Notes under the pieces: model-generated
The model's input: only the letters and a program-made list of their open reading frames with translations
The model's database searches: none
Told to the model about the DNA's origin: nothing
Made by a program: the position numbers and the translations under genes
Sequence record: MT360681
Reading direction: 5' to 3' (one strand)
Length of the DNA: 53,145 nucleotides
Source of the DNA: Shigella phage 2019SD1
Shown here: positions 22,410-53,145 of the stretch, piece by piece
How positions within the stretch are numbered: position 1 is the stretch's first letter
Layout: each line of letters starts with the position of its first letter

Positions 22410-22934
22410 ATGCATATCATTACTGGTGAGATCCGAAAAGAGCCGCGAGTAAAGCAAATGCCTAACGGCAGCACACTTTATGTGGTTGAACTTTCAGAGC
22501 GATACAAAGATAAAGATGGAAACTGGCAATATACAAACTACAGTTTCTTTTTAATGCGAAAACAGAAGGTCTTAAGGGTTGGTATGATGAGGCGTTCCGG
22601 TTGGCAAGGTTATTTCTGTATCTTGCATATCATTACTGGTGAGATCCGAAAAGAGCCGCGAGTAAAGCAAATGCCTAACGGCAGCACACTTTATGTGGTT
22701 GAACTTTCAGAGCGATACAAAGATAAAGATGGAAACTGGCAATATACAAACTACAGTTTCTTTTTAATGCGAAAACAGAAGGTCTTAAGGGTTGGTATGA
22801 TGAGGCGTTCCGGTTGGCAAGGTTATTTCTGTATCTTGTGACACTCTGCGCATTGAAACGCGAGAACACAACGGAAAGATGTATGACAAAGCAATCAACC
22901 TCCTATGGACTTTGACGACGATATTCCTTTCTGA
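22410..22934 (+). CDS. ssb: Single-stranded DNA-binding protein; exact tandem 213-bp duplication of N-terminal OB-fold segment and frame disruption before the C-terminal tail
   Basis: CAGGAGAATGAATA plus ATG; N-terminal ..TGEIRKEPRVKQMPNGSTLYVVELSERYKDKDGNWQYT.. OB-fold-like; a downstream frame ends ..MDFDDDIPF-stop, the hallmark SSB acidic tail. Confidence 0.55.
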
Positions 22935-23843: not shown

Positions 23844-24003
23844 TGAATTGCAAAATCAACCGTGTCGAGCAATTGGTAAACTTCAAGTTGCCTACTCCTC
23901 AGACTCCGCCTACTGGCTGTTGCGCAACAGCCAGTAGGCGGAGTCTGAGGAGTAGGCAACTTGAAGTTTACCAATTGCTCGACACGGTTGATTTTGCAAT
24001 TCA
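23844..24003. repeat. Perfect 160-bp palindrome (two 80-bp inverted arms, centre at 23923/23924)
   Basis: Right arm is exact reverse complement of left arm. Confidence 0.85.
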
Positions 24004-24870: not shown

Positions 24871-25104
24871 CGACGGTGGGTTTTGACGAGCAATCTCTAT
24901 GCTAGACAGATCTGAAAGGTTCGCATCTTTTCTTAGTAGATTTTCAGCATTAAGGCTTTTAGCAAATTCCTCAGCCTCATTTCGCGCCGTAACAGCGCCG
25001 TTTTTGCAGTTTCAGCGGCGTTATTTGCAGATTGAGCGCCAGTCAGACAAACGGCGTGGTCTGGTACGTATTATACAGAGTATGTTCCTTTTACGCTGAA
25101 ATCT

Positions 25105-25156
25105 GACGCTTGTCCGGTTCTGTAAATTGCGCAATTTACAGAACCGGACAAGCGTC
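25105..25156. repeat. Perfect 52-bp palindrome
   Basis: GACGCTTGTCCGGTTCTGTAAATTGC / GCAATTTACAGAACCGGACAAGCGTC. Confidence 0.8.
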
Positions 25157-25337
25157 AAAACAACGACGCAGGATGGTCGCCAATCGTTTGTGGAGGTAGT
25201 CAGTCGCAATGGGGTTATGCTCTAAAATCAGCTTTCGGAACTATTGCTAATAACCAAGCTTGGCCTGATACAGCTATACACCACTCATTCGCCCCGGTGC
25301 AACAATCTTTTTCATTGATGCACCGTTTCAAGCGGCT

Positions 25338-27494
25338 GTGATTGGTGATAACGCTCATAACAGGATGTTTTATTTTCTCATACCGGGACGTCGGGTTGGT
25401 CCTTTTGATAGTGTTGGTGCTAATACGATTATTTACTCGCCAGACGGATCTTATAGGTTGGTTATCAGAGATGACGGATTACTAGTTTATCAGAAAGGTG
25501 ACGGAACTGAAACCAAGCCATTTGAAATTGCGACTGGTGGGACTGGGGCAACTGATGCAGCAGGTGCTCGCAATAATCTTGGGCTTGGCAGCTATACACC
25601 ACTCATTCGCCCCGGTGCAACAATCTTTTTCATTGATGCACCGTTTCAAGCGGCTGTGATTGGTGATAACGCTCATAACAGGATGTTTTATTTTCTCATA
25701 CCGGGACGTCGGGTTGGTCCTTTTGATAGTGTTGGTGCTAATACGATTATTTACTCGCCAGACGGATCTTATAGGTTGGTTATCAGAGATGACGGATTAC
25801 TAGTTTATCAGAAAGGTGACGGAACTGAAACCAAGCCATTTGAAATTGCGACTGGTGGGACTGGGGCAACTGATGCAGCAGGTGCTCGCAATAATCTTGG
25901 GCTTGGGACTGGGCAAGACGTTCAATTTAAGAGCATTACGGCTACAGACGGCGATATTCTAGTTCCGCAAACTCACGTTGTAGGATGTAAAACTAATACT
26001 GGCGGTAACAAAAATATCTATCTGACGAACTTACCGGAGAATCAACTTCAGGTGGGTGGGACTGGCGCTCAATCTGCAAATAACGCCGCTGAAACTGCAA
26101 AAACGGCGCTGTTACGGCGCGAAATGAGGCTGAGGAATTTGCTAAAAGCCTTAATGCTGAAAATCTACCATGTATTGCTGGGCGACGCTCAAGGTTATAT
26201 CACTGGATACGATACGAAATGGCGAGAGCAATTAACACTCATTCGCCCCGGTGCAACAATCTTTTTCATTGATGCACCGTTTCAAGCGGCTGTGATCAGT
26301 GAAGTTATCAGCGATACACAAATCCGCGCTATCACAACTGGCGGCGCTGAAATTGGGCGGAGCAACTACATTATTTTGCTGCATGACTCAATCACTGTTG
26401 ATGGCCCGGCGCAAGATGTTGCGGAAACTCTGCGTTACTATCAAAGCAAAGAAACTCAGATCGAGGAAGCTATTGAATTTTTCAAAAACTTTGATCTAAA
26501 ACAGTTGCAAGATCTGGCTAATCAGGTTAAAGGTGATGCAGAGAAAACAGCCAATGATCGTGCTGCTACTGAACAACTGAAAAACGACACTCAACATATA
26601 AAGGATTCTGCTGTTGCTGAAACAAACCAGATTAAAGCAGACACTAACGCAATCAAGGCGCAAACACAACAGATTAAAGATTCTGCGATAACGGAAGTTA
26701 ATTCCGCACGCGATCAAGGTGTTTTAGCTGTAAACCAGACTAAAGATCAGGCTGTTTCAGAAATGAATCAGATAAAGGGTGATGTTTCGAATCTGAAAAC
26801 GAAGCTATTTCAGCAAGGGATTCAGCCCAGCAATACATGGCAATGGACGCTCAAGGTTATATCACTGGATACGATACGAAATGGCGAGAGCAATATCAGT
26901 GAAGTTATCAGCGATACACAAATCCGCGCTATCACAACTGGCGGCGCTGAAATTGGGCGGAGCAACTACATTATTTTGCTGCATGACTCAATCACTGTTG
27001 ATGGCCCGGCGCAAGATGTTGCGGAAACTCTGCGTTACTATCAAAGCAAAGAAACTCAGATCGAGGAAGCTATTGAATTTTTCAAAAACTTTGATCTAAA
27101 ACAGTTGCAAGATCTGGCTAATCAGGTTAAAGGTGATGCAGAGAAAACAGCCAATGATCGTGCTGCTACTGAACAACTGAAAAACGACACTCAACATATA
27201 AAGGATTCTGCTGTTGCTGAAACAAACCAGATTAAAGCAGACACTAACGCAATCAAGGCGCAAACACAACAGATTAAAGATTCTGCGATAACGGAAGTTA
27301 ATTCCGCACGCGATCAAGGTGTTTTAGCTGTAAACCAGACTAAAGATCAGGCTGTTTCAGAAATGAATCAGATAAAGGGTGATGTTTCGAATCTGAAAAC
27401 GAAGCTATTTCAGCAAGGGATTCAGCCCAGCAATACACATGCGTTTTCTCCCGTGTTGCATGTTAATGTCAATGCAGATAATAGCATTTGCTAA
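25338..27494 (+). CDS. Long tail fibre protein; 318-bp tandem duplication (25271-25588, 25589-25906), 600-bp tandem duplication (26297-26838 and 26897-27438) and frame disruption near 26100
   Basis: N-terminal ..GGTGATDAAGARNNLGLG.. motif common to phage tail fibres; long coiled-coil-like repeats rich in A/T/N/Q/K. Confidence 0.6.
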   Translation: MIGDNAHNRMFYFLIPGRRVGPFDSVGANTIIYSPDGSYRLVIRDDGLLVYQKGDGTETKPFEIATGGTGATDAAGARNNLGLGSYTPLIRPGATIFFIDAPFQAAVIGDNAHNRMFYFLIPGRRVGPFDSVGANTIIYSPDGSYRLVIRDDGLLVYQKGDGTETKPFEIATGGTGATDAAGARNNLGLGTGQDVQFKSITATDGDILVPQTHVVGCKTNTGGNKNIYLTNLPENQLQVGGTGAQSANNAAETAKTALLRREMRLRNLLKALMLKIYHVLLGDAQGYITGYDTKWREQLTLIRPGATIFFIDAPFQAAVISEVISDTQIRAITTGGAEIGRSNYIILLHDSITVDGPAQDVAETLRYYQSKETQIEEAIEFFKNFDLKQLQDLANQVKGDAEKTANDRAATEQLKNDTQHIKDSAVAETNQIKADTNAIKAQTQQIKDSAITEVNSARDQGVLAVNQTKDQAVSEMNQIKGDVSNLKTKLFQQGIQPSNTWQWTLKVISLDTIRNGESNISEVISDTQIRAITTGGAEIGRSNYIILLHDSITVDGPAQDVAETLRYYQSKETQIEEAIEFFKNFDLKQLQDLANQVKGDAEKTANDRAATEQLKNDTQHIKDSAVAETNQIKADTNAIKAQTQQIKDSAITEVNSARDQGVLAVNQTKDQAVSEMNQIKGDVSNLKTKLFQQGIQPSNTHAFSPVLHVNVNADNSIC

Positions 27495-27516: not shown

Positions 27517-27535
27517 GCGAAAGTAGCAGTGACAT

Positions 27536-28470
27536 GATCCAACCAACTCCGGTATCATTACCGCACACGTTGCAGATCGCACCGCCATCGCCTTTTTATC
27601 GCCAAGTTTATCCGTCCATCTGAAGCGATCCTTTCCGCCGCAGTGGGGCTTTTCATTGATGAAGAAGGTAAACAGTCTTTTCTAGCAAAGGACTACACGC
27701 GCGGGTCGGTTGTGAGAACAGGAAACACCGATAAGACTATCTATCTTTGCGTTGACTGGATTGATGCGCAACATATTCACCTTGCAACTGGTCAAGAGGT
27801 TTGGGCCTGCTTCGATGCAACTAATATTGAGATTGTAGCTTACAGGTATAAAGGCAACAGAAGAATGCGAGTTGTCTGTAAGAGTACAGACCGTGACGCT
27901 ATCATAGCTGCCGAGGAAAGAGGTCTTGAAATTATGATGCCGATTAATGATAATTACAGGCAAGGGATAGACAGGAAGGTTTACAAACCTGAATCTCTTC
28001 TCAAGCTAACCGGAGAACCTTACAGCGAAGTGATCAATATTTTGGGCCGTTTTCTTGGGAAAGTTCCACAGGACTATAGAATCAAGGCAAATAAGCGAGT
28101 ATCTCGTGATTCTGGTTATTCGTTTGGGAAACAGGCAAGTCATGAATGCTGCGAGCGCGTTATGTCAAAAACATTAAAATTTGATCGCACGCCGTTAAGC
28201 ACATATGAAGGAATATACCCGCCTGAAGATGGTTATTATGAATGCGGCGTAAAAGATGGTCGATACATTCACGCGTTACCATGTTACCGGTGCATTCAGA
28301 TGAAATTGATGATGAAATGTGCAATGTGCTTTTCATTGATGAAGAAGGTAAACAGTCTTTTCCCCCACTGCGGCGGAAAGGATCGCTTCAGATGGACGGA
28401 TAAACTTGGCGATAAAAAGGCGATGGCGGTGCGATCTGCAACGTGTGCGGTAATGATACCGGAGTTGGTT
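27536..28470. repeat. Segment bounded by ~115-bp perfect inverted repeats (27536-27650 and 28354-28470) plus 34-bp direct repeats (27648-27682, 28320-28353)
   Basis: Exact reverse-complement identity of the two outer arms. Confidence 0.8.
27643..28319 (+). CDS. Hypothetical protein encoded inside the inverted-repeat-flanked segment
   Basis: Open frame across the internal segment; GTG start; no recognisable motifs. Confidence 0.25.
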
Positions 28471-28622
28471 GGATCACAAGATTGATGCTTGCCGTTAAAA
28501 ACTTCATTTGGAAGACCGCAAATACTTTGTAGCGCCTCACGCCACAATCCTTGCATATATGGGAGTACATCTTCCTTTTGATAAACCATAAAGTTTTCGT
28601 TATTCATATACACCTCAAACAA
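28354..28622 (-). CDS. Hypothetical protein, N-terminal part only (frame ends inside inverted repeat)
   Basis: Minus-strand start at 28622; protein-like N-terminus MFEVYMNNENFMVYQKEDVLPYMQGLWREALQ.. Confidence 0.25.
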
Positions 28623-28645
28623 AAAGCCTGACAGATGATAACATC

Positions 28646-29158
28646 ATGCCGGGCATTGTTTTTCTTATTGAGTATTACGGCAGCGTGTCAGCAATGTCAA
28701 GCCGTGCTTTTAGTCCAGCGCGAAAGAACAGCGAATCGCGGTATCAACTGGCAAGATTGACAAACGCACAATCAATGGCAATAACGGAACTCGACGGGGT
28801 AAAGATAAGAAAAGCGCAAGCGCCCTACAGGATACTATGTTTTAAAAGAGCAAAGCGTCTTAACGTTAGCCAGCAAACTGTAAATCAGTGGCGTGTTCGC
28901 GGTATGATTTCAGCCGCTGGCGCTCAAAAGGTGCATAACGATTACAAGAAATATGGTTGTCAAGGCTATCGCGCGTCATTCTGCCGTCCAGACCTGCGAT
29001 TTGATTCCAATGGAAAACCGCTCACAAAGAGATGTGATAAGCGTGAAATGTTGCGAGTAGTAAGAATGTCAGATTATGAACCCGGCGGATTCCTGTATAA
29101 ACCTGAAAGCACTAATTGCCATTATTCATTCTCCAATAGCATTTTTGTTAAACAATGA
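28646..29158 (+). CDS. Hypothetical DNA-binding protein (HTH-like)
   Basis: Segment ..RLNVSQQTVNQWRVRGMIS.. resembles a helix-turn-helix. Confidence 0.3.
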   Translation: MPGIVFLIEYYGSVSAMSSRAFSPARKNSESRYQLARLTNAQSMAITELDGVKIRKAQAPYRILCFKRAKRLNVSQQTVNQWRVRGMISAAGAQKVHNDYKKYGCQGYRASFCRPDLRFDSNGKPLTKRCDKREMLRVVRMSDYEPGGFLYKPESTNCHYSFSNSIFVKQ

Positions 29159-29241
29159 TTTAATGATTGTGTATTATACACGCCAAATGGCATTACTCAA
29201 AGGTTTTAGATATTGCGGCAAGGGTATGCAGACATTGCGAC

Positions 29242-30568
29242 ATGATTCCAAACATTGAAAAGCAAATATCAGCACTTGGTGAAGCGGTAATTAAATCCAT
29301 TCAGGAGCGATTCACTGTTGGCGAGGTTGTGCCTTACCCTTACCAGTGCGTTGCATACGCTGAGATCGCAAAGCGTATGAAAAATTATAAGCATCCATTC
29401 TTTGTTAAAGCGTCCGTATCGGCTGGCAAAACATTGATGTTTGCAATGGTTGCTCACCAGTGCCGGAAAATGGGATTAAAACGCAGGACTGAAGACAAAA
29501 GCGCATACTTTCCGATTGTTGTTGGTGCTGAGGGTACTGTAGTTAATGGACTGTTTAAAGCGCTTGGCGACTATGTTCCGCACGTTATCGGGATTGACGA
29601 GTGTCACCGGTGGATTGGGAAGACCTTGCCGACGCAAACAACGAAGAAAGGCGAAAAAGTACCAAATCCAGATTATGACATAACAAAGGGAAGCAGGAAC
29701 AGAAATACAGAGTTCCTGATTGGCGAGGATGGCTTGCCAATGGAGGGAACAGGCCGCACACAATACACTGTCATTATCATGGAAATGATGCGCCGCTGCC
29801 GGAAAGCATATGGTCATGAACTGCGCATCTTTGGTATGACTGGATCGGAGTTTCGCGGCGTAGTCCCGATCCCGGTAGAAGACAAAAGCAGAAAGGATTC
29901 TGGCGTGAACAGGTTACTAATATTGATACCAACTACCCCAACAAATTTTGGCGACGTTGGCGATCTAGGGTATGACCTTTCAGAGTTTGAGGCATCCAGT
30001 GAGGATGGAGTTGCAGACTTTGACGCTAAAACGCTTCGCAGGATGGAACAAAAATTCATGAAGAAGCGACCATGCAGGAGAAAGGCACTGCAAAGAGGCA
30101 GCGGCAGCATTGCCACCGGAACGACTTACAGGATCATTACTGGTAAAACTGGCGACAACCAGCGCAAGGAGTGGCTGAGGGAAGCATACGAAGGGAAGGT
30201 AAAATACATCTTCCGTGTTCAGGCGCTAACAACTGGCGTTAACGTGCCGTTTTGGGATACGTCTGTTATTCTGCGCAAGATTGGATCGCTAACTTTGCTG
30301 ATTCAGCTTTTAGGTCGCGGAATGCGACTACTTAAGAAGTGGCATAAGGAGCAAGGATTCAAGAAAGATGATCACCTCGTCATGGATTTTTCAGGAACGA
30401 TGGACGAGTTAGGGAGCTTTATTTTGATCCGATACTGGAGCAGGCGCAGCACCAGAAGCGATTCAGGAACGGTAAAGATCCGAAGCCGTGCCCTATTTGC
30501 GGAACTCTTAATAGCTATTATGCTCGCCGTTGTATGCACGCACGTAGACGAAAACGACAACAGATGTG
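29242..30568 (+). CDS. SF2 helicase (DEAH-type) with C-terminal zinc ribbon; frame disruption near 30420
   Basis: Walker A-like ASVSAGKT, DECH box (..IGIDECHRW..), motif VI-like ..LIQLLGRGMRL..; alternative frame ends ..KPCPICGTLNSYYARRCMHARRRKRQQM-stop. Confidence 0.6.
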
Positions 30569-30724
30569 AGTGGTTCTTTAAATTCAGGACATGTGATGAT
30601 CAGATTGACCCGCGCACTAAAAGATTATTCAGCGCGGCTGTGGAACTAAAATCATTGATTGACCCAAACGAGAAGTTAAGCGGAAAGCACTATACAAAAA
30701 CGACTGGTTCGGTGCAATCTTTCT

Positions 30725-31206
30725 CTGTTGACATGACGAAAAACCAGAAAGGGATAATATTTAATTATGAGCTTTCCGATGGCATAGACACTTTCAGGGC
30801 GAGAGAGATATTTTCCCTGAATCTGAAAGCCAAATTTGCCGCGCAAAATGGCGAAGCGTTGCTCTTAAGCACATACCAGATCGCCGTGTTGCTGGCATGG
30901 TGGCGAGCTATCGTAATGCAAGAAAAATCATTGATTGACCCAAACGAGAAGTTAAGCGGAAAGCACTATACAAAAACGACTGGTTCGGTGCAATCTTTCT
31001 CTGTTGACATGACGAAAAACCAGAAAGGGATAATATTTAATTATGAGCTTTCCGATGGCATAGACACTTTCAGGGCGAGAGAGATATTTTCCCTGAATCT
31101 GAAAGCCAAATTTGCCGCGCAAAATGGCGAAGCGTTGCTCTTAAGCACATACCAGATCGCCGTGTTGCTGGCATGGTGGCGAGCTATCGTAATGCAAGAA
31201 AAATAA
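30725..31206 (+). CDS. Small hypothetical protein with hydrophobic C-terminus, present as two exact tandem copies (276-bp unit)
   Basis: Repeated peptide MTKNQKGIIFNYELSDGIDTFRAREIFSLNLKAKFAAQNGEALLLSTYQIAVLLAWWRAIVMQEK. Confidence 0.25.
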
Positions 31207-31303
31207 TGCAATATGTGAATCACATCATGCCACCATCGCGTGTGACTCACCGCAAGACTAGCAAGGAGAAGATAATTTGTACAAGAAGGAGTTTAATTAT
31301 GGC

Positions 31304-31808
31304 AATGACTGATAAAGGCGATTATCTGGAGTTTTACGAAAGAGATCCGACGGATACGCTAAAGGAGGAATCACACCAGATCGGGGCGTTTCAATGGTTA
31401 ACTTATGCTCATCCTGAATTTCTTGCCGGCATACGAAAACGAGGGCGACAAGGGATCGCCACCGCAATGATGGATCAGCAAGCAGGACTCGTTAAGGGAG
31501 TAAGTGATTTCATCATCCTGATTGGATTAAAGGCCGTTATCCGTTCGCGGCAAGCAATGACTGATAAAGGCGATTATCTGGAGTTTTACGAAAGAGATCC
31601 GACGGATACGCTAAAGGAGGAATCACACCAGATCGGGGCGTTTCAATGGTTAACTTATGCTCATCCTGAATTTCTTGCCGGCATACGAAAACGAGGGCGA
31701 CAAGGGATCGCCACCGCAATGATGGATCAGCAAGCAGGACTCGTTAAGGGAGTAAGTGATTTCATCATCCTGATTGGATTAAAGGCCGTTATCCGTTCGC
31801 GGCAATAG
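31304..31808 (+). CDS. Hypothetical nuclease-like protein (VRR-NUC-like, tentative); exact tandem 252-bp duplication (31303-31554, 31555-31806)
   Basis: AGGAG RBS plus ATG at 31304; ..GLVKGVSDFIILIG.. loosely resembles VRR-NUC motif. Confidence 0.3.
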
Positions 31809-33806: not shown

Positions 33807-34997
33807 ATGAGATGGACAATCACCACTCGCGACAAAGAACAGCTAGAAGCATTAATGCAGGCCGCTATGGATGCATTTAGCGAAGAAGTTCCGCGACTTG
33901 ATCCGCAACCGGAATCACAAAAGGATTATAGCGAGACGTTATCACTGTATCCGATCTTTGATATGCACCGGGCGCAATGGCGCATAAGCATGAATGCGGC
34001 GAGAACTGGGATACAGCAACAGCAGAGCGCGAATAATTTCATTGATTATTCCATCCAGTGCGCGCCGGATAGCGAAAAGGCTGTTTTGCTGATTGGTGGT
34101 GACATGCTGCATAGTGACGGCACGGAAGCGGTGACACCTGCAAGCGGTCACGTATTGGATCAAGATAGTCGATACGCAAAACTTGTTTATGTTGCCATCC
34201 GGTCAGTGCGTCGAGCAATAGCAAAGCTGTTATCAAAACATAAAACGAGATGGACAATCACCACTCGCGACAAAGAACAGCTAGAAGCATTAATGCAGGC
34301 CGCTATGGATGCATTTAGCGAAGAAGTTCCGCGACTTGATCCGCAACCGGAATCACAAAAGGATTATAGCGAGACGTTATCACTGTATCCGATCTTTGAT
34401 ATGCACCGGGCGCAATGGCGCATAAGCATGAATGCGGCGAGAACTGGGATACAGCAACAGCAGAGCGCGAATAATTTCATTGATTATTCCATCCAGTGCG
34501 CGCCGGATAGCGAAAAGGCTGTTTTGCTGATTGGTGGTGACATGCTGCATAGTGACGGCACGGAAGCGGTGACACCTGCAAGCGGTCACGTATTGGATCA
34601 AGATAGTCGATACGCAAAACTTGTTTATGTTGCCATCCGGTCAGTGCGTCGAGCAATAGCAAAGCTGTTATCAAAACATAAAACGATCTGGTTGCGCGCA
34701 GCAATGGCGGCAGCATATGAGAATGAGCCGCGAGTGCATGTTGATGTTTCTCCGCGAGTAGTTCATCACACGCAATATGGCAAAACATTCCCGCATACCA
34801 TCATCTGGTTGCGCGCAGCAATGGCGGCAGCATATGAGAATGAGCCGCGAGTGCATGTTGATGTTTCTCCGCGAGTAGTTCATCACACGCAATATGGCAA
34901 AACATTCCCGCATACCATCATGGGCACACTATCCGCAAACCTGAAACATTGGCGGCAAAGATGCATACGCTGCGCGCGAGTACATAGCACTATATAA
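33807..34997 (+). CDS. Hypothetical protein; exact tandem 438-bp duplication (33810-34247, 34248-34685) and 117-bp tandem duplication (34686-34802, 34803-34919)
   Basis: 396-aa ORF composed largely of repeated units. Confidence 0.3.
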   Translation: MRWTITTRDKEQLEALMQAAMDAFSEEVPRLDPQPESQKDYSETLSLYPIFDMHRAQWRISMNAARTGIQQQQSANNFIDYSIQCAPDSEKAVLLIGGDMLHSDGTEAVTPASGHVLDQDSRYAKLVYVAIRSVRRAIAKLLSKHKTRWTITTRDKEQLEALMQAAMDAFSEEVPRLDPQPESQKDYSETLSLYPIFDMHRAQWRISMNAARTGIQQQQSANNFIDYSIQCAPDSEKAVLLIGGDMLHSDGTEAVTPASGHVLDQDSRYAKLVYVAIRSVRRAIAKLLSKHKTIWLRAAMAAAYENEPRVHVDVSPRVVHHTQYGKTFPHTIIWLRAAMAAAYENEPRVHVDVSPRVVHHTQYGKTFPHTIMGTLSANLKHWRQRCIRCARVHSTI

Positions 34998-35327: not shown

Positions 35328-35935
35328 TGAGTATAAAACAAAGAAACGTACACACAGAGAGAGTGCGATGCGCTACTGGCAAAGCATATCAAGATCGCAA
35401 AGGATGAAGTTGATAAACGTGTAAAGGTTGATATCCCTGATACAATGACCGCTGCGGCTTTTGGCGTTGCTCTTGCTCTTACTTCTCCATTACTGGAGGA
35501 AATAGAAGGAGTAAAACATAAACCGTACAAAGATATTGCTGGAATATGGACGGTTTGCGCCGGAATAACTGGACCTGACGTAATGCCGACCGCTGCGGCT
35601 TTTGGCGTTGCTCTTGCTCTTACTTCTCCATTACTGGAGGAAATAGAAGGAGTAAAACATAAACCGTACAAAGATATTGCTGGAATATGGACGGTTTGCG
35701 CCGGACGCGCAGCGATGTATTCATTCACATACAATGCTGGCACTGGTGCTTTTAGAAATTCAACCATGCTTAAGCTGATTAATAACGGTCGTTATATGGA
35801 AGCGTGCAATCAGTTATGGCGATGGACAAAATACACCAATCCAAAACAGGAAAGAAAGAAACGTCTAAAGGACTGCGCAACCGCCGCGCGGTGGAATTTA
35901 AATATTGCATTAAGGATCTGTAATCATGAGAAAGT
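35327..35935 (+). CDS. Endolysin, GH24 lysozyme-like; tandem ~141-bp duplication (35447-35587, 35588-35710) and frame disruption near N-terminus
   Basis: ..LEEIEGVKHKPYKDIAGIWTVCAG.. matches the E-G..Y.D..G..T.G.G lysozyme catalytic region; C-terminal ..FTYNAGTGAFRNSTMLKLINNGRYMEACNQLWRW.. Confidence 0.55.
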
Positions 35936-36324: not shown

Positions 36325-36978
36325 ATGGTTGCATGCCATTTTTTCTTTCTTCCTCCAGCACACCCCTATTCCATTGTCATATATAAATATTTTATTCCAA
36401 TCGATTGGAATAAAATATTTATATATGACAATGGAATATTGTGGGAAATGCACAATGGAAAAATACCAGAAGGAATGGAGATAGATCATATATGGCACAA
36501 TAGGTGGGATAACAGGATTGAAAATTTAAGGCTTGCATCAAGATTAGAGAACAGCAAAAACGTATCTCTACTAAAAAGAAATAAATCTGGTAGGGTTGGG
36601 GTGTGCTGGAGGAAGAAAGAAAGGTGGAGAAACAGAAGGGGAAAAGCAAAGCACGGAAGCGTTGCTGGATGTGTAGATAAAAATGGCTATGTAAGAATAA
36701 GGTATAATGGTGTATTGCTTTTGGCACATAGGATAATATGGGAAATGCACAATGGAAAAATACCAGAAGGAATGGAGATAGATCATATATGGCACAATAG
36801 GTGGGATAACAGGATTGAAAATTTAAGGCTTGCATCAAGATTAGAGAACAGCAAAAACGTATCTCTACTAAAAAGAAATAAATCTGGTAGGGTTGGGGTG
36901 TGCTGGAGGAAGAAAGAAAAAATGGCATGCAACCATATACATATCTTTTCCTTAGAGCTTTTATTTGTTGTCTATTAA
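36325..36978 (+). CDS. HNH homing endonuclease with AP2-like DNA-binding domain; internal ~180-297-bp duplication (36442-36620 approx = 36739-36917)
   Basis: ..NGYVRIRYNGVLLLAHRIIWEMHNGKIPEGMEIDHIWHNRWDNRIENLRLASRLENSKN.. classic HNH motif; ..KSGRVGVCWRKK.. AP2-like. Confidence 0.65.
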   Translation: MVACHFFFLPPAHPYSIVIYKYFIPIDWNKIFIYDNGILWEMHNGKIPEGMEIDHIWHNRWDNRIENLRLASRLENSKNVSLLKRNKSGRVGVCWRKKERWRNRRGKAKHGSVAGCVDKNGYVRIRYNGVLLLAHRIIWEMHNGKIPEGMEIDHIWHNRWDNRIENLRLASRLENSKNVSLLKRNKSGRVGVCWRKKEKMACNHIHIFSLELLFVVY

Positions 36979-36996: not shown

Positions 36997-37500
36997 CTTC
37001 ATCGCTCATTTCTCCGATCCGTAAAACATCCCTAACCCATTCGTTTTGCATACCTTCCGGGCTGTAAAGTTCAAACGAGAAAGGTCGATTTGCGGATCCT
37101 TTCTTACACCAGAACTTTCCATCAACTCCATCTGCTGCATTCAGGAACTGAACTGAGCGAGCAATGTTGCGCGCCAACTTTCCAACAACATCAACATCAT
37201 TGCCAAGAGAAATTACAGGGTAGCGATCATTTCCGTTATTAACATCATTAACCTCACCCCAAAAGCTGGACGATTGACGGTATCCGTTTGCCTGAATGGA
37301 CACGCGCACCGGAGACAATCCTTGTGCATCAGCTAATTCGATAATTTGTTTTGGTGTTAGTTTGTTGGTTTCAAACGAAAAATTCGAGTTGATGGAAAGT
37401 TCTGGTGTAAGAAAGGATCCGCAAATCGACCTTTCTCGTTTGAACTTTACAGCCCGGAAGGTATGCAAAACGAATGGGTTAGGGATGTTTTACGGATCGG
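36997..37500. repeat. Fold-back structure: ~95-bp perfect inverted repeats (36997-37090 and 37405-37500) flanking a ~315-bp segment that codes on the minus strand
   Basis: 37405-37500 is the exact reverse complement of 36997-37090; best reading frame of the enclosed segment is on the minus strand whereas the continuing gene is on the plus strand. Confidence 0.8.
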
Positions 37501-38747
37501 AGAAACTTGGACGCTTCACGGTTGAGTATCACGGAACGGATCAGCCGACCGCTCTTTATGTTGTCACAAGCCAGCCTCCTTCAACTGGTAAATCTGCCGT
37601 TAACAGCCCGGCACTTGCTCCAATGGTTGCAGAAGTAGAAAGAATTAACGATCAGCGAAAGAAGGAAAGAAAAAGATTCAGGCAAAGTTGGCAGGTCTTG
37701 CAAAAGAGACTTGGACGCTTCACGGTTGAGTATCACGGAACGGATCAGCCGACCGCTCTTTATGTTGTCACAAGCCAGCCTCCTTCAACTGGTAAATCTG
37801 CCGTTAACAGCCCGGCACTTGCTCCAATGGTTGCAGAAGTAGAAAGAATTAACGATCAGCGAAAGAAGGAAAGAAAAAGATTCAGGCAAAGTTGGCAGGT
37901 CTTGCAAAAGAGAAGCAAAACATACATTAGCGCCGCCAACGCTTCTGGCTATGCTGGTGATGATGCTGAAATGGGTAAACTAATCGAGATCATCACTCGA
38001 CACGGCAAGGCTAATAAGGGGATCTTGAATGTGCGCGCCATATATGAGGCTGCACGAAAAGTTAAGCCGTTTGTTGGTCAGGCTGGCGTAATGAAGCGTA
38101 TGGAAACGCAACTGCTGCCGATGCTTGAAGAAAGAAATTATATTTGTGTGATTAATGGCGTTGTTTTTGTAAATCCAACATTGCTGGGGAGTGAATCAAA
38201 CATCCAGCTTAAGATCAGCAAATCAGCAATGCGAGTTCTTAACATGGCTCGTCAGGAGATGGAACCGCACCTTGCTGATGGAGGAAAGTATTCGCATACA
38301 ATGCTGCGCGGCGCGCTTGGCAAAATGGATAAGCAGGTGATCAGGATTGCTTCAGTTTTGCACACTATCCGCAACTGGTTTAATCGGCGGATACCCTCAA
38401 AAGTCGAAAGAGATCTGAAAGCATGGGATCACGGTCATGTTTCTATAGCTCGTGCAAACGCTGACAACAATATGAGTTTTAAAGCTCTTGGCTGTATGGC
38501 GGTAATTGCCCGTGATGAAACAATCAATGCCATCATGGATGCAGGATCGCGCGGTATCGGTGTGAGTGAGCGTTATTTGCTTGTGCGTGAGGAATCATTT
38601 TGTGACATCGTTTTCCCTGTGTCCGACACCACGCCGGAAGGACTTGCAAGAATCAACAATCGCCGGGGTAACTTTGCTGTGATTTCAGACGAGGCAACGA
38701 GTATTAACAGCCTTATTGATGATAACTCCTTTTTGATGCGGCAATAA
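37500..38747 (+). CDS. Putative replication protein with P-loop-like motif (primase/helicase-type, tentative); tandem 204-bp duplication (37506-37709, 37710-37913); native N-terminus probably lies in the inverted segment upstream
   Basis: ..VVTSQPPSTGKSAV.. Walker A-like; long ORF in replication region. Confidence 0.3.
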   Translation, partial: EKLGRFTVEYHGTDQPTALYVVTSQPPSTGKSAVNSPALAPMVAEVERINDQRKKERKRFRQSWQVLQKRLGRFTVEYHGTDQPTALYVVTSQPPSTGKSAVNSPALAPMVAEVERINDQRKKERKRFRQSWQVLQKRSKTYISAANASGYAGDDAEMGKLIEIITRHGKANKGILNVRAIYEAARKVKPFVGQAGVMKRMETQLLPMLEERNYICVINGVVFVNPTLLGSESNIQLKISKSAMRVLNMARQEMEPHLADGGKYSHTMLRGALGKMDKQVIRIASVLHTIRNWFNRRIPSKVERDLKAWDHGHVSIARANADNNMSFKALGCMAVIARDETINAIMDAGSRGIGVSERYLLVREESFCDIVFPVSDTTPEGLARINNRRGNFAVISDEATSINSLIDDNSFLMRQ

Positions 38748-42229: not shown

Positions 42230-42740
42230 TGTGAGAACTTGAGTTTGATCAATTTTAATCAAGTGATTAACTTTTTGTGTGGAGGGATAGAGAAATGCGG
42301 TCCTCTTGCGCCCTTTCCGGCAATCCCGGCGCGCACATCTGTTATCTTCTGTTATCGCTGTTATGCGTGTTATTCCGGCGTGGAATCGCATAACAAAAAT
42401 AACAAGATAAATCCATATAACATACTAAAAATAAGGATTATTTATTTATATGTATCTATAAATTACTATCTGTTATGTGTGTTGTGTGGTCATATTGATG
42501 TCTGATGTATTCTTGGTGATTGTGTGTGGTTGTGTGTTGGCAGGTATGTATATATGGGGTGGGGGCGAATCCGCGCATTTTTAGATAACACGCCAAAATA
42601 ACATTGATTTATAAGGAGAAAAACGAGAATCTTGTTGTGTTCTGAAAAGGCAACATTGAAAAACTGCCAATAACAATAAAAACATTTGACGCGCCAGAAT
42701 GGTAAATGATAATGCAGCCACTGAATCACGAGAGGGTATA
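42230..42740. promoter_or_regulatory. Divergent intergenic control region between minus-strand and plus-strand early gene blocks; AT-rich with GTGT-rich repeats
   Basis: No ORFs; repeats similar in style to 19930-20130 (TTATGTGTG, GTGGTTGTGTGTTGG). Confidence 0.4.
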
Positions 42741-42744
42741 AAGC

Positions 42745-43085
42745 ATGAGTGAATCTGTATTTACAAATGAGCTTCGCAAGGTTGCGACTGCGCTCGCATC
42801 TGGAACACATGAATCTATTCAGATACCTGAAAGATGGGTAAGGCAGCACCGGAGGGTAAGAAGTCAGCCAGCAATGCCGGATCATATCTGCGTCAGATTA
42901 TGGGGCGCGTTCCAGAAGTGGCGGAGAAGGGTAGAGTTTCAGTATCAAAGAAACCTTACGGCCCTGATAGCGAATATTTCGGCGAAAATTACTTTGATGT
43001 GGCGATTGTTAGTGCGCCTAATCGCAGGGTGTACAACAAGGCGGCGCTTGAGAAGGCTGTAGCGAAAGCAAAACGCCGTTGCTGA
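42745..43085 (+). CDS. Hypothetical early protein (frame change near 42835)
   Basis: GAGAGGGTATAAAGC plus ATG; two overlapping ORFs that join into one with a 1-bp correction. Confidence 0.35.
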
Positions 43086-43223
43086 GTCAATGCTTAAAGT
43101 TTCACCAAGCCCGGCGAACTACTCGCCAGATGAATATGAAACACTTGCTAAGGCGATTGCAGACTTTCACGCGATCATTAAAGAAACATATCTTAACGAT
43201 GAGGAGAATTTGACTCTGACCGG

Positions 43224-43244
43224 AAATAGCACTTTTGTTAAAAC
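43224..43244 (+). promoter_or_regulatory. Conserved promoter-like motif copy
   Basis: AAATAGCACTTTTGTTAAAAC followed by CATAAT and hairpin, then RBS and ATG at 43323. Confidence 0.55.
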
Positions 43245-43631: not shown

Positions 43632-44774
43632 TTGTGGTGCTTAAGCGTGGATAACATCAAGTATCCGATCACGTTCCACACGGTTGGTAACTCAACTATT
43701 CGATTCACATCTCGCGACAATGGCGTTTATAGCGACGGTCAGAAATCAGAGTTGAAAGTTGATTTCTTTGTCAATGGTCACAACAAATTCAATCCGCACA
43801 ACGAAAAAGATAAGGTGTACTACGTGGAAGATATTACAAAACACTTGTTTGGCGAAACTCCATTCGGCGGCGGGAAGACGTCAATTCAACAAATCATTGA
43901 CGATCAGATCCGCAAGGCAGCCGTTGAAATGAAAGCGCCCGGAGGCTGGCGTATTGATAAGGGCGCCTTTACCATTCAAGAAATCGTAACGCAGGGCGCG
44001 ATTGAAGACATGCCGCTTGGCGCTTCAATCATCGGCATCAAAGACGACAACGGCGACTGGCAGGATGTTTCATTCCTGTTAAGCAGATCGAAGTACACGA
44101 CGACCTGTTTTGCCTCCCGGCGCATCATGGCAGCTACAAGGGCAAAGCCTTTGCCGCAGAGCTTGACATCAAGCGCGGAACGATTGTTAAGTGGAAGGCA
44201 AAAGTGTAAAGATAACATCAAGTATCCGATCACGTTCCACACGGTTGGTAACTCAACTATTCGATTCACATCTCGCGACAATGGCGTTTATAGCGACGGT
44301 CAGAAATCAGAGTTGAAAGTTGATTTCTTTGTCAATGGTCACAACAAATTCAATCCGCACAACGAAAAAGATAAGGTGTACTACGTGGAAGATATTACAA
44401 AACACTTGTTTGGCGAAACTCCATTCGGCGGCGGGAAGACGTCAATTCAACAAATCATTGACGATCAGATCCGCAAGGCAGCCGTTGAAATGAAAGCGCC
44501 CGGAGGCTGGCGTATTGATAAGGGCGCCTTTACCATTCAAGAAATCGTAACGCAGGGCGCGATTGAAGACATGCCGCTTGGCGCTTCAATCATCGGCATC
44601 AAAGACGACAACGGCGACTGGCAGGATGTTTCATTCCTGTTAAGCAGATCGAAGTACACGACGACCTGTTTTGCCTCCCGGCGCATCATGGCAGCTACAA
44701 GGGCAAAGCCTTTGCCGCAGAGCTTGACATCAAGCGCGGAACGATTGTTAAGTGGAAGGCAAAAGTGTAAATAG
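43632..44774 (+). CDS. Hypothetical early protein; exact tandem ~561-bp duplication (43650-44210, 44211-44771); C-terminus frame-disrupted
   Basis: 380-aa ORF consisting of two identical 187-aa units. Confidence 0.35.
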   Translation: MWCLSVDNIKYPITFHTVGNSTIRFTSRDNGVYSDGQKSELKVDFFVNGHNKFNPHNEKDKVYYVEDITKHLFGETPFGGGKTSIQQIIDDQIRKAAVEMKAPGGWRIDKGAFTIQEIVTQGAIEDMPLGASIIGIKDDNGDWQDVSFLLSRSKYTTTCFASRRIMAATRAKPLPQSLTSSAERLLSGRQKCKDNIKYPITFHTVGNSTIRFTSRDNGVYSDGQKSELKVDFFVNGHNKFNPHNEKDKVYYVEDITKHLFGETPFGGGKTSIQQIIDDQIRKAAVEMKAPGGWRIDKGAFTIQEIVTQGAIEDMPLGASIIGIKDDNGDWQDVSFLLSRSKYTTTCFASRRIMAATRAKPLPQSLTSSAERLLSGRQKCK

Positions 44775-46397: not shown

Positions 46398-46946
46398 ATG
46401 TTTGATATTGCATTCTCAATGCTTGGCGTTTACCGATATGACGAGTTCATTGATCTGTATTTTGATATTGCATTCTCAATGCTTGGCGTTTACCGATATG
46501 ACGAGTTCATTGATCTGTATAACGACCGCGAGCAGAAAGAAAAGCCTCAAGCAATCTTGCAAGGAAAGTCGCCGCGCCAGTTCATGATCTGGATTAGCGA
46601 AGAAGTCATGAAGCCAGCTTTTGGCGAGCAGTATTTCGGAAATCGCATGGTTGAGCAAGTGCACGAGATGTACAGAGATTTGGCTGTTGTAATTAGTGAT
46701 GGCGGATTCACTGAAGAAATCAAGCCGCTCATTAAGGCAGGCCATGAAGTTCACATTTGCAGACTGCATCGCGAAGGTTTTACGTTTGATGGCGATTCGC
46801 GAAACTATATTGACCTGAGCGGATACCATCACCGAGTAAAACATTACGACTTCACAATGATTGATGGCGATCCAGAAAAACTGTTGACGAGATCATCAAA
46901 ACTATCCAGTGGAAACACATTAAGATCAAATAGCACGAATTGCTAA
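46398..46946 (+). CDS. Hypothetical protein; 63-bp tandem duplication at N-terminus (46398-46460, 46461-46523)
   Basis: ORF; stop embedded in promoter motif 46928-46949. Confidence 0.3.
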   Translation: MFDIAFSMLGVYRYDEFIDLYFDIAFSMLGVYRYDEFIDLYNDREQKEKPQAILQGKSPRQFMIWISEEVMKPAFGEQYFGNRMVEQVHEMYRDLAVVISDGGFTEEIKPLIKAGHEVHICRLHREGFTFDGDSRNYIDLSGYHHRVKHYDFTMIDGDPEKLLTRSSKLSSGNTLRSNSTNC

Positions 46947-46949
46947 AAC
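46928..46949 (+). promoter_or_regulatory. Conserved promoter-like motif copy (CGAATTG variant)
   Basis: AAATAGCACGAATTGCTAAAAC followed by GGTT-GCGGTATAGT-AACC. Confidence 0.55.
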
Positions 46950-47005
46950 AGATTAAAGGGGTTGCGGTATAGTAACCACACACCAAGCAACGAAAGGAAA
47001 TGACA

Positions 47006-47299
47006 ATGCGAGTTTTAATTGTTTACGAAACAAATCCAGACGGCGTCAATTTCTATGATATCGAAATGACAAGCGAACAATATGAGATCGTGAAAACCGC
47101 GCAAGGTAAGTTTATTAATTGCCACGAGGACACGCCGGGGACTGAATACCTCAACATTGCGCTATGTTCAAATCTTGAATATCTGGACGAATGCGATCAG
47201 TCTCTTCCTCATGCGTGCGCATGGAAAGATAAAACAATCATTGATCTGGAAAACCCAGCCAAGTTTGATGCAATCATTTACACTGGGATTATGTGCTAA
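47006..47299 (+). CDS. Hypothetical protein
   Basis: AAAGGAAATGACA plus ATG; downstream of promoter motif. Confidence 0.45.
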   Translation: MRVLIVYETNPDGVNFYDIEMTSEQYEIVKTAQGKFINCHEDTPGTEYLNIALCSNLEYLDECDQSLPHACAWKDKTIIDLENPAKFDAIIYTGIMC

Positions 47300-47319
47300 A
47301 TAGCACGAATTGCCAAAAG
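47298..47319 (+). promoter_or_regulatory. Conserved promoter-like motif copy (CGAATTG variant)
   Basis: AAATAGCACGAATTGCCAAAAG followed by TATAAT. Confidence 0.5.
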
Positions 47320-47373
47320 CGGGGTGCAATGCCTCGCTATAATGCAAACACCAATCAACGAGAGGGCTTGAAC

Positions 47374-47778
47374 ATGTTAGAACTTCACAAAATCCGCGTA
47401 GGCACAAAATTTGTTGTAACACGGGTATGTGGTGAGATGTGCGGTATTCGTAAAGGCGAGATTGTAACGGCTTCAGATCGCTATATCGGATCGACCAAAG
47501 AGTTTAACAGACCACGCATCAAGAATGGCTATATCATAACTCGCCGTTTGGGATTTGATCATTATTGCGTAGTGGCAACTCAAGGCGTTTTGATTGAGCT
47601 TAAGCGAATCAGCGATCATCGCGGCTGCCATATTAAGACAATGAAAACACCATTTCAGCGAGCGCGATACGATGCGCGACGGATGCGCCGACTTGCTCGA
47701 AATGCGATCAAGTTCAAAAAGCACGGCAGTAATTTTTACAGAACGTACAAAGGGATTGCGCGAAATGATGGGAAATAA
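47374..47778 (+). CDS. Hypothetical basic protein
   Basis: GAGAGGG RBS plus ATG; downstream of promoter motif 47298-47319. Confidence 0.45.
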   Translation: MLELHKIRVGTKFVVTRVCGEMCGIRKGEIVTASDRYIGSTKEFNRPRIKNGYIITRRLGFDHYCVVATQGVLIELKRISDHRGCHIKTMKTPFQRARYDARRMRRLARNAIKFKKHGSNFYRTYKGIARNDGK

Positions 47779-47908
47779 CAACAACGCAACCAATCCTAAG
47801 CCGCCATTTGATTTTCATGAAATCATGATTGTGTTATTCTTGATTCTCTTAGTTTTTATTCAGTGAGGGCAGCACTATGGTTTTAATGCACTAAAACGAA
47901 TCTTCACT

Positions 47909-48265
47909 ATGGAGTTCAATAGCTACAGTGAGGCGCGTGAATACGCTAAAAATTGCACAAGTTCATACCTTACAAGCTGCGTTTGCTGGTTGTCAAAAGT
48001 GCGACGTATGGGATCACGTATGAAAAGAGTAATTATCACTTTTATTGCCCTTATCGCTGGTTCCCATTTGGCTTATGGGTATAGCGGCATTGTTGAGTCA
48101 GTCGGCGGAATGATTATCTTCTGGCTGGCGCATATTACGGCTACGGCGATGGATTTAAAATGGCAAGCGTTACATCCTGACCGGGAAGAAATAATGTTTA
48201 ACCGCGCCGCTTCGGTGGCGCTAAAAGGAGGAAACAAATGGCTAAAAGCAATCGTAAGATGTTGA
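47909..48265 (+). CDS. Hypothetical membrane protein (start uncertain, possibly 48020)
   Basis: Hydrophobic segments ..VIITFIALIAGSHLAYGYSGIVESVGGMIIFWLAHI.. Confidence 0.3.
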   Translation: MEFNSYSEAREYAKNCTSSYLTSCVCWLSKVRRMGSRMKRVIITFIALIAGSHLAYGYSGIVESVGGMIIFWLAHITATAMDLKWQALHPDREEIMFNRAASVALKGGNKWLKAIVRC

Positions 48266-50381: not shown

Positions 50382-50492
50382 TGAGTTCTGTAATTATTGG
50401 TTTGGTTGCTTTAATCGTTGGTGTTCTAATCGGCTTTGTTGCTGTATCTTTCGTGGTGGCTGTTGGCGTTCGCTATAAGTCAAAAAGGTGAA
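50382..50492 (+). CDS. Small membrane protein (36 aa)
   Basis: AAGGAAAATATC plus ATG; translation MSSVIIGLVALIVGVLIGFVAVSFVVAVGVRYKSKR. Confidence 0.3.
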
Positions 50493-50623
50493 TTTGCTTT
50501 AGCGTTTTGGGATGAAGAGCAGAAAGTTTGGCAGGTTCGCGGTCACTATTTATCAATCGGTGGCAGGATTCACAGCACTATGAAAACAAATCCAGAGAAA
50601 GTAAAATACAAGTATTGACCAAC

Positions 50624-50649
50624 TACCCGCCAAATGGCGGGTTTTTATT
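50624..50649 (+). terminator. Rho-independent terminator closing the early gene block
   Basis: CCCGCC-AAATG-GCGGG followed by TTTTTATT. Confidence 0.6.
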
Positions 50650-50809
50650 GCCTGCAATTTGTCTATAATGATGCTTTGTTATAAAGGAGGGCGCATTATG
50701 GCTAAAACGTTAAGCCAGTAGTAAAGGCTTGCAATTTTAAAAACTATATAATAAGCAATATGGCGATATAGCAAAAGGGAAGTATTTAAATTAATGGCAG
50801 TTCAGGAGT

Positions 50810-51250
50810 ATGACAAAGGCGCACAAGTACACGCCGGAACAGGTATTTGATCTGGCTGTGCGTTACTTTACGTGGGCCGAGGAAAACCATATAGAGGCTG
50901 CGGAAACTGCATCCTTTCAGGGTGACGTATACGAAAGCAAGATTCACAAGCCGCGCGTGTTCACCTTAAATGGATTCCGCTTATTCGCTGGCCTTTCTGC
51001 TTCCGTACTTGAAAAATGGCGACGTGAGCGAGGATTCAGCGAGGTTATGGACTTTATTGACGGCGTTGTTTATGAGCAAAAATTCCAGCTTGCCGCAAAC
51101 AATATTGTTAACGCCGGATTCATTGGTAAGGAGATCGGCATTGAAAAGCCAGCTACCGTTACCATTGAGAATAACACAAGCGCCAGCGTTGACGCTGTAA
51201 CGGCGGATGAAGTCAAAGAGGCGGTAATTGACATTCTGGAGAAGATATAA
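50810..51250 (+). CDS. Terminase small subunit (probable)
   Basis: 146-aa ORF immediately upstream of large terminase; N-terminal ..YTPEQVFDLAVRYFTWAEEN.. typical of small terminase DNA-binding regions. Confidence 0.5.
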   Translation: MTKAHKYTPEQVFDLAVRYFTWAEENHIEAAETASFQGDVYESKIHKPRVFTLNGFRLFAGLSASVLEKWRRERGFSEVMDFIDGVVYEQKFQLAANNIVNAGFIGKEIGIEKPATVTIENNTSASVDAVTADEVKEAVIDILEKI

Positions 51251-51257
51251 TGCTGAT

Positions 51258-51520
51258 ATGATCAAGATCAATCCCGTTCAGCGAGATAAAGATAAGGTTA
51301 CGCGAGCAATGGACGCAGCGCCAGTAATGCGCGCCGGACGCGTGGCACTTCCAGAATATCATCCTATGCTGGCTGAGATACTCGCTGAAGTTGCGGCGTT
51401 CACATTCGATGATTCGCATCCTCATGATGATATTGTTGATAACATCATTGATGCTGTTAACATTGAAATGAACATGGCAGATGATCCGGTAGGAAGAATG
51501 AAAAATTGGCAGGTTTGCGG
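51258..51520 (+). repeat. Displaced copy of the large-terminase C-terminal coding segment (more complete than the copy at 52796-52980), fused to a promoter-motif copy
   Basis: 51258-51520 matches 52796-52980 except that the downstream copy lacks ~75 bp; occupies the position where the terminase N-terminus would be expected. Confidence 0.75.
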
Positions 51521-51523
51521 AAC

Positions 51524-51545
51524 AAATAGCACGAATCGACAAACC
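51524..51545 (+). promoter_or_regulatory. Conserved promoter-like motif copy (variant) upstream of large terminase reading frame
   Basis: AAATAGCACGAATCGACAAACC. Confidence 0.3.
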
Positions 51546-51589
51546 AATATAGGAAGACTTAACAGCGGCGCAAAACGCGCCGTTAAGGA

Positions 51590-52982
51590 AATGAGCGAAT
51601 ATTCATTCGAAAAGATGATCCGCATTTGGTTTCAACTTCTCGGGGCAAAGGTTCTTAGGAAACTGGCATTTCAGTTACCTATGCAGCGAAGTGCAGGAGC
51701 TATGGCCGGAAAGCTGGCAAAGGCGAGCGCAAAGGACTTGATTGTAACCGATGTCGGCAAGGTTAAATTGCAAGTTAACTCGCGTTCTATCGGTGGTCAG
51801 GTTACTGGTCTGCGTGGCGGCTACATGGATGATGGATTTACTGGTATGCTGGTTCTTGATGATCCAGACAAGCCGGATGACATGCTTTCTAAGGTGAAGC
51901 GCGAAGCCGGACACATGCGCCTAAAGAACACGGTGCGATCACGTCGAATGAAGGACACAACGCCAATCGTAATGGTCCAGCAACGGCTACACGTCAATGA
52001 TTCAACATGGTTCATGACAAACGGCGGCATGGGCGGCATCCAGTTTAAGGTGGTCAGTATTCCGGCGCTCGTTACTAAGGAATATCGCGAAACGCTTCCT
52101 GATTGGTTAAAGCCTGAGTTTGATCGCGATGTTTTATCCAGTAAGCCAGTAATGATTGATGGTGTTGCTCATTATTCATTCTGGCCTGCTAAGAAAGCGC
52201 GGAGGAATTACTTGCACTTCGAAATGCTGATCCGTACACGTTCGCCAGTCAGTATCAGCAACAGCCTGTTGCGCTTGGCGGTAACGTGTTTAAAACGGAG
52301 TGGTTTCAGTATTACGGCAGCAGCGAGAAATGCACGCTACCAAAACCGGATCGCTTTGAGTATACATTTATCACGGTTGATACCGCGCAGAAAACGGGTG
52401 AGCTTAACGACTACTCCGTATAAAGATCGCGTTTACTTCATTGATGGTGTTCGCGGAAAATGGGAAGCACCAGACCTTGAAACTAATTTTGTTGCGTTCG
52501 TTAATCAGTGCTGGAAGCGTAATAAAGAATGCGGAACGTTGCGAAGGATTCATGTTGAAGATAAGTCATCTGGCACTGGCTTGATTCAGAGCGCAGCGAA
52601 AAAATTATATAAAGATCGCGTTTACTTCATTGATGGTGTTCGCGGAAAATGGGAAGCACCAGACGAAACTAATTTTGTTGCGTTCGTTAATCAGTGCTGG
52701 AAGCGTAATAAAGAATGCGGAACGTTGCGAAGGATTCATGTTGAAGATAAGTCATCTGGCACTGGCTTGATTCAGAGCGCAGCGAAAAATTATGATCAAG
52801 ATCAATCCCGTTCAGCGAGACTGGCTGAGATACTCGCTGAAGTTGCGGCGTTCACATTCGATGATTCGCATCCTCATGATGATATTGTTGATAACATCAT
52901 TGATGCTGTTAACATTGAAATGAACATGGCAGATGATCCGGTAGGAAGAATGAAAAAATTGGCAGGTTTGCGGAACAAATAA
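51590..52982 (+). CDS. Terminase large subunit (N-terminal region uncertain; internal frame change near 52195; 180-bp tandem duplication 52425-52610 approx)
   Basis: ..ADPYTFASQYQQQPVALGGNVFKTEWFQYYG.. and C-terminal ..FTFDDSHPHDDIVDNIIDAVN.. typical of terminase nuclease domain; Walker A-like ..SRGKGS.. only visible in a shifted frame near 51600. Confidence 0.55.
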
Positions 52983-52985
52983 TCA

Positions 52986-53012
52986 AAGGCTGGTAAATCC
53001 AGCCTTTTTATT
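52986..53012 (+). terminator. Rho-independent terminator after large terminase
   Basis: AGGCTGG-TAAAT-CCAGCCT followed by TTTTATT. Confidence 0.6.
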
Positions 53013-53034
53013 GAGGAAAGATATACCAGAGGAA

Positions 53035-53145
53035 ATGGTTTCCCGGCTTTACTGTTGACGGCGTGGCAGATGAGGCGGCATTCCGTTCCTTGTGGGATGA
53101 GAAGCGACTCAATGCAAAATTATTGATGCGCTTTGTTGGTCGCGT
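53035..53145 (+). CDS. Portal protein N-terminal segment (continues at position 179 after wrap)
   Basis: ATG at 53035 after AGGAAAG-like RBS and terminase terminator; downstream sequence identical to 179-255 apart from one A-run length difference; the frame needs a 1-bp correction. Confidence 0.35.

Follow-up and report, generated by a model that had tools for sequence, protein, structure and literature searches.

The large terminase subunit (TerL) gene in the deposited genome of Shigella phage 2019SD1 carries a displaced copy of its own 3' end near its start and lacks the segment that encodes the P-loop of the packaging ATPase. We are highly confident that this architecture is artefactual: it belongs to the deposited sequence and not to the phage. 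The stop and start codons that flank five of the junctions within the gene point to pieces of a gene broken by frameshifts that were, most likely, joined in silico. The stretch analysed (the window; 53,145 nucleotides) is the complete 2019SD1 record, GenBank MT360681, which is also IMGVR_UViG_2974632794_000001; over the 6974 nt compared, this contig and the window are 100% identical. Its GC content of 44.51% agrees with the published description of the genome (53.15 kb, GC 44.5%; PMC8590004). The small terminase subunit (TerS, ORF76) at 50810..51250 (146 aa) and TerL at 51228..52982 (584 aa, best match only 64.5% identical) listed in Table S1 of the 2019SD1 paper (PMC8590004) have exactly the coordinates of the ORFs in the window.

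The displaced block can be delimited precisely. All terminase features lie on the plus strand. The TerS ORF ends at 51250, the natural TerL start codon occupies 51250-51252, and only 8 nt of TerL (the start codon plus 5 nt, ATGCTGAT, 51250..51257; out of frame in ORF77) stand before a block of 294 nt (98 codons, 51258..51551) that consists of TerL codons 437-522, the stop codon and 23 nt of post-stop sequence. This block matches the natural TerL 3' sequence of Salmonella phage slyngel (locus L001, 3417-3711) at 96%. An earlier reading made from the sequence alone had proposed a second TerL 3' end directly after the TerS stop, and on this point it is borne out. It had set the block at 51258-51520; the start is right, and the true end is 51551, directly before a natural in-frame TAA. 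The block reads through the natural TAG because of a 1-nt deletion in an A-run near 51500.

The likeness of the displaced and native copies is far beyond chance. They have 30 nt in common (51257-51286 and 52791-52820), and 51369-51528 agrees with 52821-52981 at 160 of 161 nt, a single difference in A-run length. The native site (52791-52982) is only partial, and the upstream copy is the more complete one, as had been noticed. The sequence missing from the native copy had been described as about 75 bp over 52796-52980; in fact there is one gap, at 52820|52821, and the 82 nt that belong there are present in the displaced copy only (51287-51368). The 23 nt that naturally follow the stop codon (51529-51551) are likewise found only in the displaced copy. 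In a genuine duplication we would expect a donor site that is intact or independent of the copy, and the TerL donor site is neither. The supposed “promoter-motif copy” behind the block turns out to be the natural post-stop sequence, which occurs once in the window; a promoter scan of 51529-51560 gave no convincing site, sigma-70-like sites included.

The annotated “terminase large subunit”, ORF77 (51228..52982, 584 aa), is an open frame made up of seven pieces of 30, 294, 141, 726, 189, 213 and 162 nt, all whole codons. Behind the displaced block comes an N-terminal fragment (51552..51692; natural codons ~5-52, 47 codons) with two frameshifting indels, which in the natural sequence is preceded by TTG and followed by TGA. 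The 294-nt block is an insertion that takes the place of a single codon (TTG). Since codons ~5-52 resume at 51552-51692, the N-terminus is interrupted and not, as had been suggested, replaced. At the next junction (51692..51693), the gene lacks 204 nt of its natural sequence (codons 52-119, with the Walker A sequence GSGKT among them); the missing segment begins with TGA and ends with ATG. The body fragment (51693..52418, natural codons ~121-374) retains in its natural frame the Walker B-like acidic motif MLVLDDPD after a hydrophobic strand (GMLVLDDPDKPDD); from ~52195 to 52418 it is read in the wrong frame, after a 1-nt deletion. A natural segment of 20 nt (TGA...ATG) is missing just before 52419. 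There follow two versions of the fragment YKDRVYF...AAKKL (TerL codons 381 to ~436), at 52419..52607 and 52608..52820, which are 97% identical; the second has a 3-nt deletion and a different A-run, runs on, frame-shifted, into codons 437-445 and breaks off directly before a natural in-frame TAA. The last piece (52821..52982) holds codons 469-522 and the stop, and the 82 nt that should precede it run from TAA to ATG. Altogether about 110 codons of ORF77 are in wrong frames.

The junctions follow a simple rule. At five of them, a natural stop codon directly follows the left piece (TAA, TGA, TGA, TGA, TAA), and a natural start codon directly precedes the right piece (TTG, ATG, ATG, ATG, ATG), so that the missing segments of 204, 20 and 82 nt each extend from a stop codon to an ATG. 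The breakpoints of a genuine duplication should be independent of reading frame and gene calls, and those of the TerL pieces are not.

The packaging ATPase N-terminus is indeed not intact in this sequence, as had been claimed, and the P-loop is lost through the separate 204-nt gap at 51692|51693. The Walker A-like segment reported in a shifted frame around 51600 does not exist: the forward frames of 51200-53000 contain no A/GxxxxGK[ST] motif, and GRLNSGAK at 51552 is a frameshifted reading of the natural WEDLTAAQK. Nowhere does the window match the natural 204-nt segment in which Walker A (ITPGSGKTE, residues 67-75) is encoded. We also considered a relocated, degenerate Walker A copy at 23738-23854 (tblastn E = 0.003) and rejected it; it has no DNA similarity to the natural segment and is natural gene g39 sequence.

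Natural terminases do not share this arrangement. Had homologues shown the same architecture, the proposal of an abnormal TerL would have fallen; none was found, and all 19 close TerL homologues sequenced (522-526 aa) have an intact P-loop (ITPGSGKTE or VAPGSSKTE). A further 119 homologues among the matches listed (1140 hits) are 351-585 aa long, most of them 514-558 aa. In 51 phage genomes at least 80% of the region is covered, in natural order, and the TerS-TerL-portal layout is intact in a metagenomic relative (L006). A search of IMG/VR with a junction-specific 22-mer found IMGVR_UViG_2974632794_000001 alone, and neither this search nor the homologues among the matches listed yielded a relative that shares any 2019SD1 TerL junction. 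We infer that the TerL junctions of the record are absent from real phage DNA.

The pieces themselves correspond to parts of a TerL of the Hanrivervirus/T1-like kind (slyngel QIN98152.1, Escherichia phage grams; 522 aa; PF17289), to which they are 95-99% identical at the DNA level. Most of the nuclease-domain sequence is present in ORF77, as is the Walker B-like motif. In contrast to the natural gene, the pieces are out of order, one of them comes in two versions, and 204, 82 and 20 nt, including the P-loop, are absent. A tblastn comparison of ORF77 with the natural TerL gives three out-of-order segments (433-514, 5-55 and 126-522), and ORF77 thus has no full-length colinear alignment to its homologues; BLASTP coverage against 522-aa homologues is at best 51-73% among the matches listed. 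The Pfam domain Terminase_6C (PF17289) is matched in the natural TerL at profile positions 1-152 (residues 347-499), and in ORF77 only at positions 74-152 of 155 (residues 8-77), so a contiguous C-terminal Terminase_6C nuclease domain is lacking. Terminase genes can be naturally interrupted by inteins, introns and homing-endonuclease genes, and ORF77 resembles these cases in having extra sequence inside a terminase gene. Unlike them, its insert is the gene's own 3' end, without splicing or endonuclease features, and the missing P-loop could not be restored by the splicing of an intein or intron.

Is the terminase the only gene affected? It had been presented as a local, one-gene peculiarity, a view that we do not share, as it is one of more than 100 like breakpoints in the record. 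By BLAST, the window breaks into 124-132 blocks against slyngel (the comparison took in a 50-kb portion of slyngel), compared with 11 for herni against slyngel, both of them natural Hanriverviruses. Only 23 of the 77 slyngel proteins align to the window as one segment with at least 97% coverage. The portal, primase, helicase, tape measure and tail fibre genes are disrupted like TerL. The same anomaly is thus found in unrelated genes of the record and in none of the relatives.

Within the window we count 45 internal repeat pairs, the majority of them 100% identical; several perfect palindromes and 18 tandem duplications are among them. The tandem duplications span 117-561 nt, with 100% identity in nearly every case, and the period is a multiple of 3 in all 18. 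They are located at 3665-4066, 6128-6565, 7235-7534, 7867-8244, 11708-12283, 12279-12656, 12694-12927, 15433-16302, 17299-17574, 22411-22838, 25271-25906, 30648-31204, 31302-31805, 33809-34686, 34686-34921, 37501-37913, 43650-44771 and, in TerL, 52419-52803. By our own reading of the flanks, a start codon precedes about 11 of the 18 duplicated units and none precedes the other seven or so; many units end just before a stop. Where a junction can be placed unambiguously, it falls at phase 0 of the open frame around it in nine of the ten cases. Of the 22 deletions in the genome whose position is exact, about 8 run from stop to start, for which the chance is about 0.2% each. Several other placeable deletions run from start to stop, and here a whole fragment has been relocated elsewhere. 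At least seven other genes (head morphogenesis, minor tail, tail fibre, helicase, endolysin, g13 and prohead-protease) have a later piece at their own start, as TerL does; these pieces are at or adjoin the start codon at 1331-1398, 2106-2448, 3367-3520, 13752-13802, 15119-15163, 29209-29244 and 35344-35447.

Strand flips show a further regularity. Among the blocks in minus-strand genes 21 of 34 are flipped, versus 3 of 86 in plus-strand genes. Genes on the minus strand of natural relatives (tail-tip-like g40, primase, transcriptional regulator, helicase) have been flipped piecewise to sense (25269-27494, 27533-28663, 28722-29119 and 37296-38747). The flipped genes form long plus-strand open frames in which the pieces stand in genome order and not in protein order. 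The helicase pieces (q99-167, 99-175, 421-527, 345-409, 249-310 and 191-232), for example, share one reading frame, all in sense orientation, and run backwards relative to the protein; the region around them is a single open frame of 484 codons. Sense-oriented pieces in one frame that keep genome order are not producible by DNA inversion.

Inside the flipped-piece regions we also observed perfect palindromes without spacer (23844-24003, 25104-25157 and 36367-36438) and 100% inverted repeats (24936-25044/26060-26168, 27535-27648/28363-28476 and 37009-37128/37386-37505), 45-120 nt in length; they probably result from one fragment being kept in both orientations. Three other regions, 18620-19770, 42353-43224 and 46857-48157, have little or no DNA similarity to slyngel and could be natural variable regions; the last corresponds in part to slyngel sequence beyond the 50-kb portion compared.

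The origin of the data is in keeping with an artefact: error-prone reads and an external quality flag are both on record. The genome was sequenced on the GridION with Oxford Nanopore R9.4 only, with Albacore basecalling and assembly in Canu 1.8, and received no short-read polishing; the mean read length was 1.9 kb (reads: SRA SRS7234126). Canu produced a scaffold of 73,606 bp (73.6 kb), 1.4 times the genome length, which was reduced to the 53.15-kb record by a procedure that is undescribed (PMC8590004). The window has 6.25 small indels per kb versus 1.44 per kb in a natural Hanrivervirus pair (about fourfold), and 43% of them are in homopolymers versus 15% in this control pair. An excess of 1-2-nt indels, many in homopolymers, is the usual error profile of a nanopore consensus, and the excess in the window is consistent with unpolished nanopore consensus errors. 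NCBI has tagged the proteins of MT360681 UNVERIFIED_ASMBLY, and that of ORF77 (QJT70605.1 / YP_009901466.1, a singleton) carries the title [quoted passage not shown]. The tag denotes an assembly that NCBI staff could not verify; MT360681 is one such GenBank record and differs from the others in no point.

How might such a sequence have come about? The procedure, reverse-engineered from the sequence, would be the following. Nanopore indels would have frameshifted the genes, so that each gene appeared as several short ORF fragments, each from an internal ATG, TTG or GTG to a spurious stop. The fragments would then have been joined in silico to continuous coding sequences, with their start and stop codons trimmed, in sense orientation and in roughly coordinate order. 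Sequence between the stop of one fragment and the start of the next would have been dropped, and the Walker A segment with it. Overlapping or alternative fragments may have been kept twice, giving in-frame duplications, and some may have been misplaced to a gene start, such as the 294-nt fragment of the TerL 3' end. The paired copies in the terminase region differ in homopolymer lengths and by a 3-nt indel; they probably stem from two independent noisy versions of this region within the over-length scaffold, which begins and ends in the neighbouring portal gene. The 2019SD1 paper does not describe an ORF-stitching step (PMC8590004), and stitching does not account for every event: about 7 of the 18 duplicated units have no start codon before them, and a 33-nt piece in TerS (50777-50809) stems from outside the known Hanrivervirus sequence.

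Genes fragmented by frameshifts from homopolymer indels are a well-known class of artefact in unpolished nanopore assemblies. The 2019SD1 record resembles this class in its excess of 1-2-nt indels, 43% of them in homopolymers, and in the breakage of TerS and TerL at A-runs. It differs in that the fragments have been rejoined to long open frames rather than left separate, and in the added duplications, deletions, relocations and strand flips.

Two further accounts of the pieces were considered. Duplications arising from nested gene calls that share a stop are only partly consistent with the data, as the copies are not separated by a stop and no start codon precedes about 7 of the 18 units. Stitching guided by BLASTX or TBLASTN matches is out, since the pieces include long stretches in non-homologous frames.

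The first rival to stitching is a plain assembler error, in which Canu mis-joined noisy or chimeric reads and the 73.6-kb scaffold was badly trimmed, with no editing guided by annotation. Nanopore-only data, a mean read length of 1.9 kb and a scaffold well above genome length would all favour it, and homopolymer lengths differ between the TerL copies, as would be expected of two noisy consensus sequences made independently. However, an assembler is blind to codons and strands, yet every duplication period is a multiple of 3, the junctions are at phase 0, start and stop codons delimit the pieces, and the flips, which are restricted to minus-strand genes, yield a single long sense ORF. We therefore regard this explanation as improbable.

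A real rearrangement is more improbable still. It would place the TerL 3' duplicate at the 5' end, together with internal deletions, in the 2019SD1 genome itself or in a defective sub-population of the lysate. The sequence is that of a public isolate genome, and segmental duplications are known in phage genomes. Against this, the donor site is not intact and no junction is common to any relative; flips made gene by gene with gene order kept are impossible by DNA inversion, and the assembly has been flagged by NCBI. Moreover, 2019SD1 plaques, and its burst size is reported as 151 (PMC8590004); terminase and portal must therefore function in it, yet Walker A is gone genome-wide and the other disrupted genes named above, the portal gene included, are equally scrambled. 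The more specific notion that long reads caught a packaging-defective sub-population of the lysate, in which the TerL 3' segment had been copied to the 5' end, and carried it into the consensus seems to us hardly credible. A synthetic or language-model-generated genome, a thought prompted by the perfect in-frame repeats, is out, since the record is the public 2019SD1 isolate genome.

The oddity of TerL has no biological significance, and its value is one of data hygiene. The placement of 2019SD1 in a “distinct clade” rests on a concatenated phylogeny of four markers, TerL, portal, helicase and primase (PMC8590004). These four are among the most damaged genes of the record (portal 8-1375, primase 27533-28663, helicase 29242-31206, TerL 51228-52982), and the distinct-clade status is probably an artefact as well. 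The scrambled MT360681 has spread to IMG/VR, UniRef and RefSeq protein accessions (e.g., YP_009901466.1). Users in comparative genomics, terminase-based packaging prediction and model training would take over its spurious duplications, deletions and strand flips. Codon-aligned pieces with start and stop codons at their junctions offer a fingerprint by which similarly “repaired” nanopore genomes might be recognized.

The neighbours of TerL are affected too. A natural TerS has 173 aa, as seen by comparison with L006 and slyngel, and the annotated ORF76 starts at its natural Met28. A 5' remnant of TerS with the natural ATG at 50700 (50700..50776) is broken by an A-run deletion and a premature stop; in the block map, 50400-50776 corresponds to slyngel L001 1299-1680. 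Between the remnant and ORF76 lies a foreign piece of 33 nt (11 codons, 50777..50809) with an in-frame TAA. An internal segment of ECH1_55, a hypothetical gene of Escherichia virus ECH1 (Guelphvirus, India), matches it at 100%; the piece occurs once in the window and is absent from slyngel and herni. This piece may be the remnant of a lost gene or a carry-over from another phage of the barcoded run.

Downstream of TerL, at 52985..53007, there is a hairpin with a T-run. The scan gave the stem on the minus strand (53007-52985), and we read it on the plus strand because the T-run follows the stem; it looks like a natural intrinsic terminator. About 23 nt that normally lie upstream of it are missing. 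At the junction 53023..53024 the portal gene lacks its first 166 nt (natural ATG...TAG), and this first portal ORF fragment is present twice elsewhere, at 21-175 and 761-919. There is also a scrambled overlap between the two ends of the record (1-256, 761-919 and 53024-53145), with 175-256 matching 53065-53145 at 98.8%.
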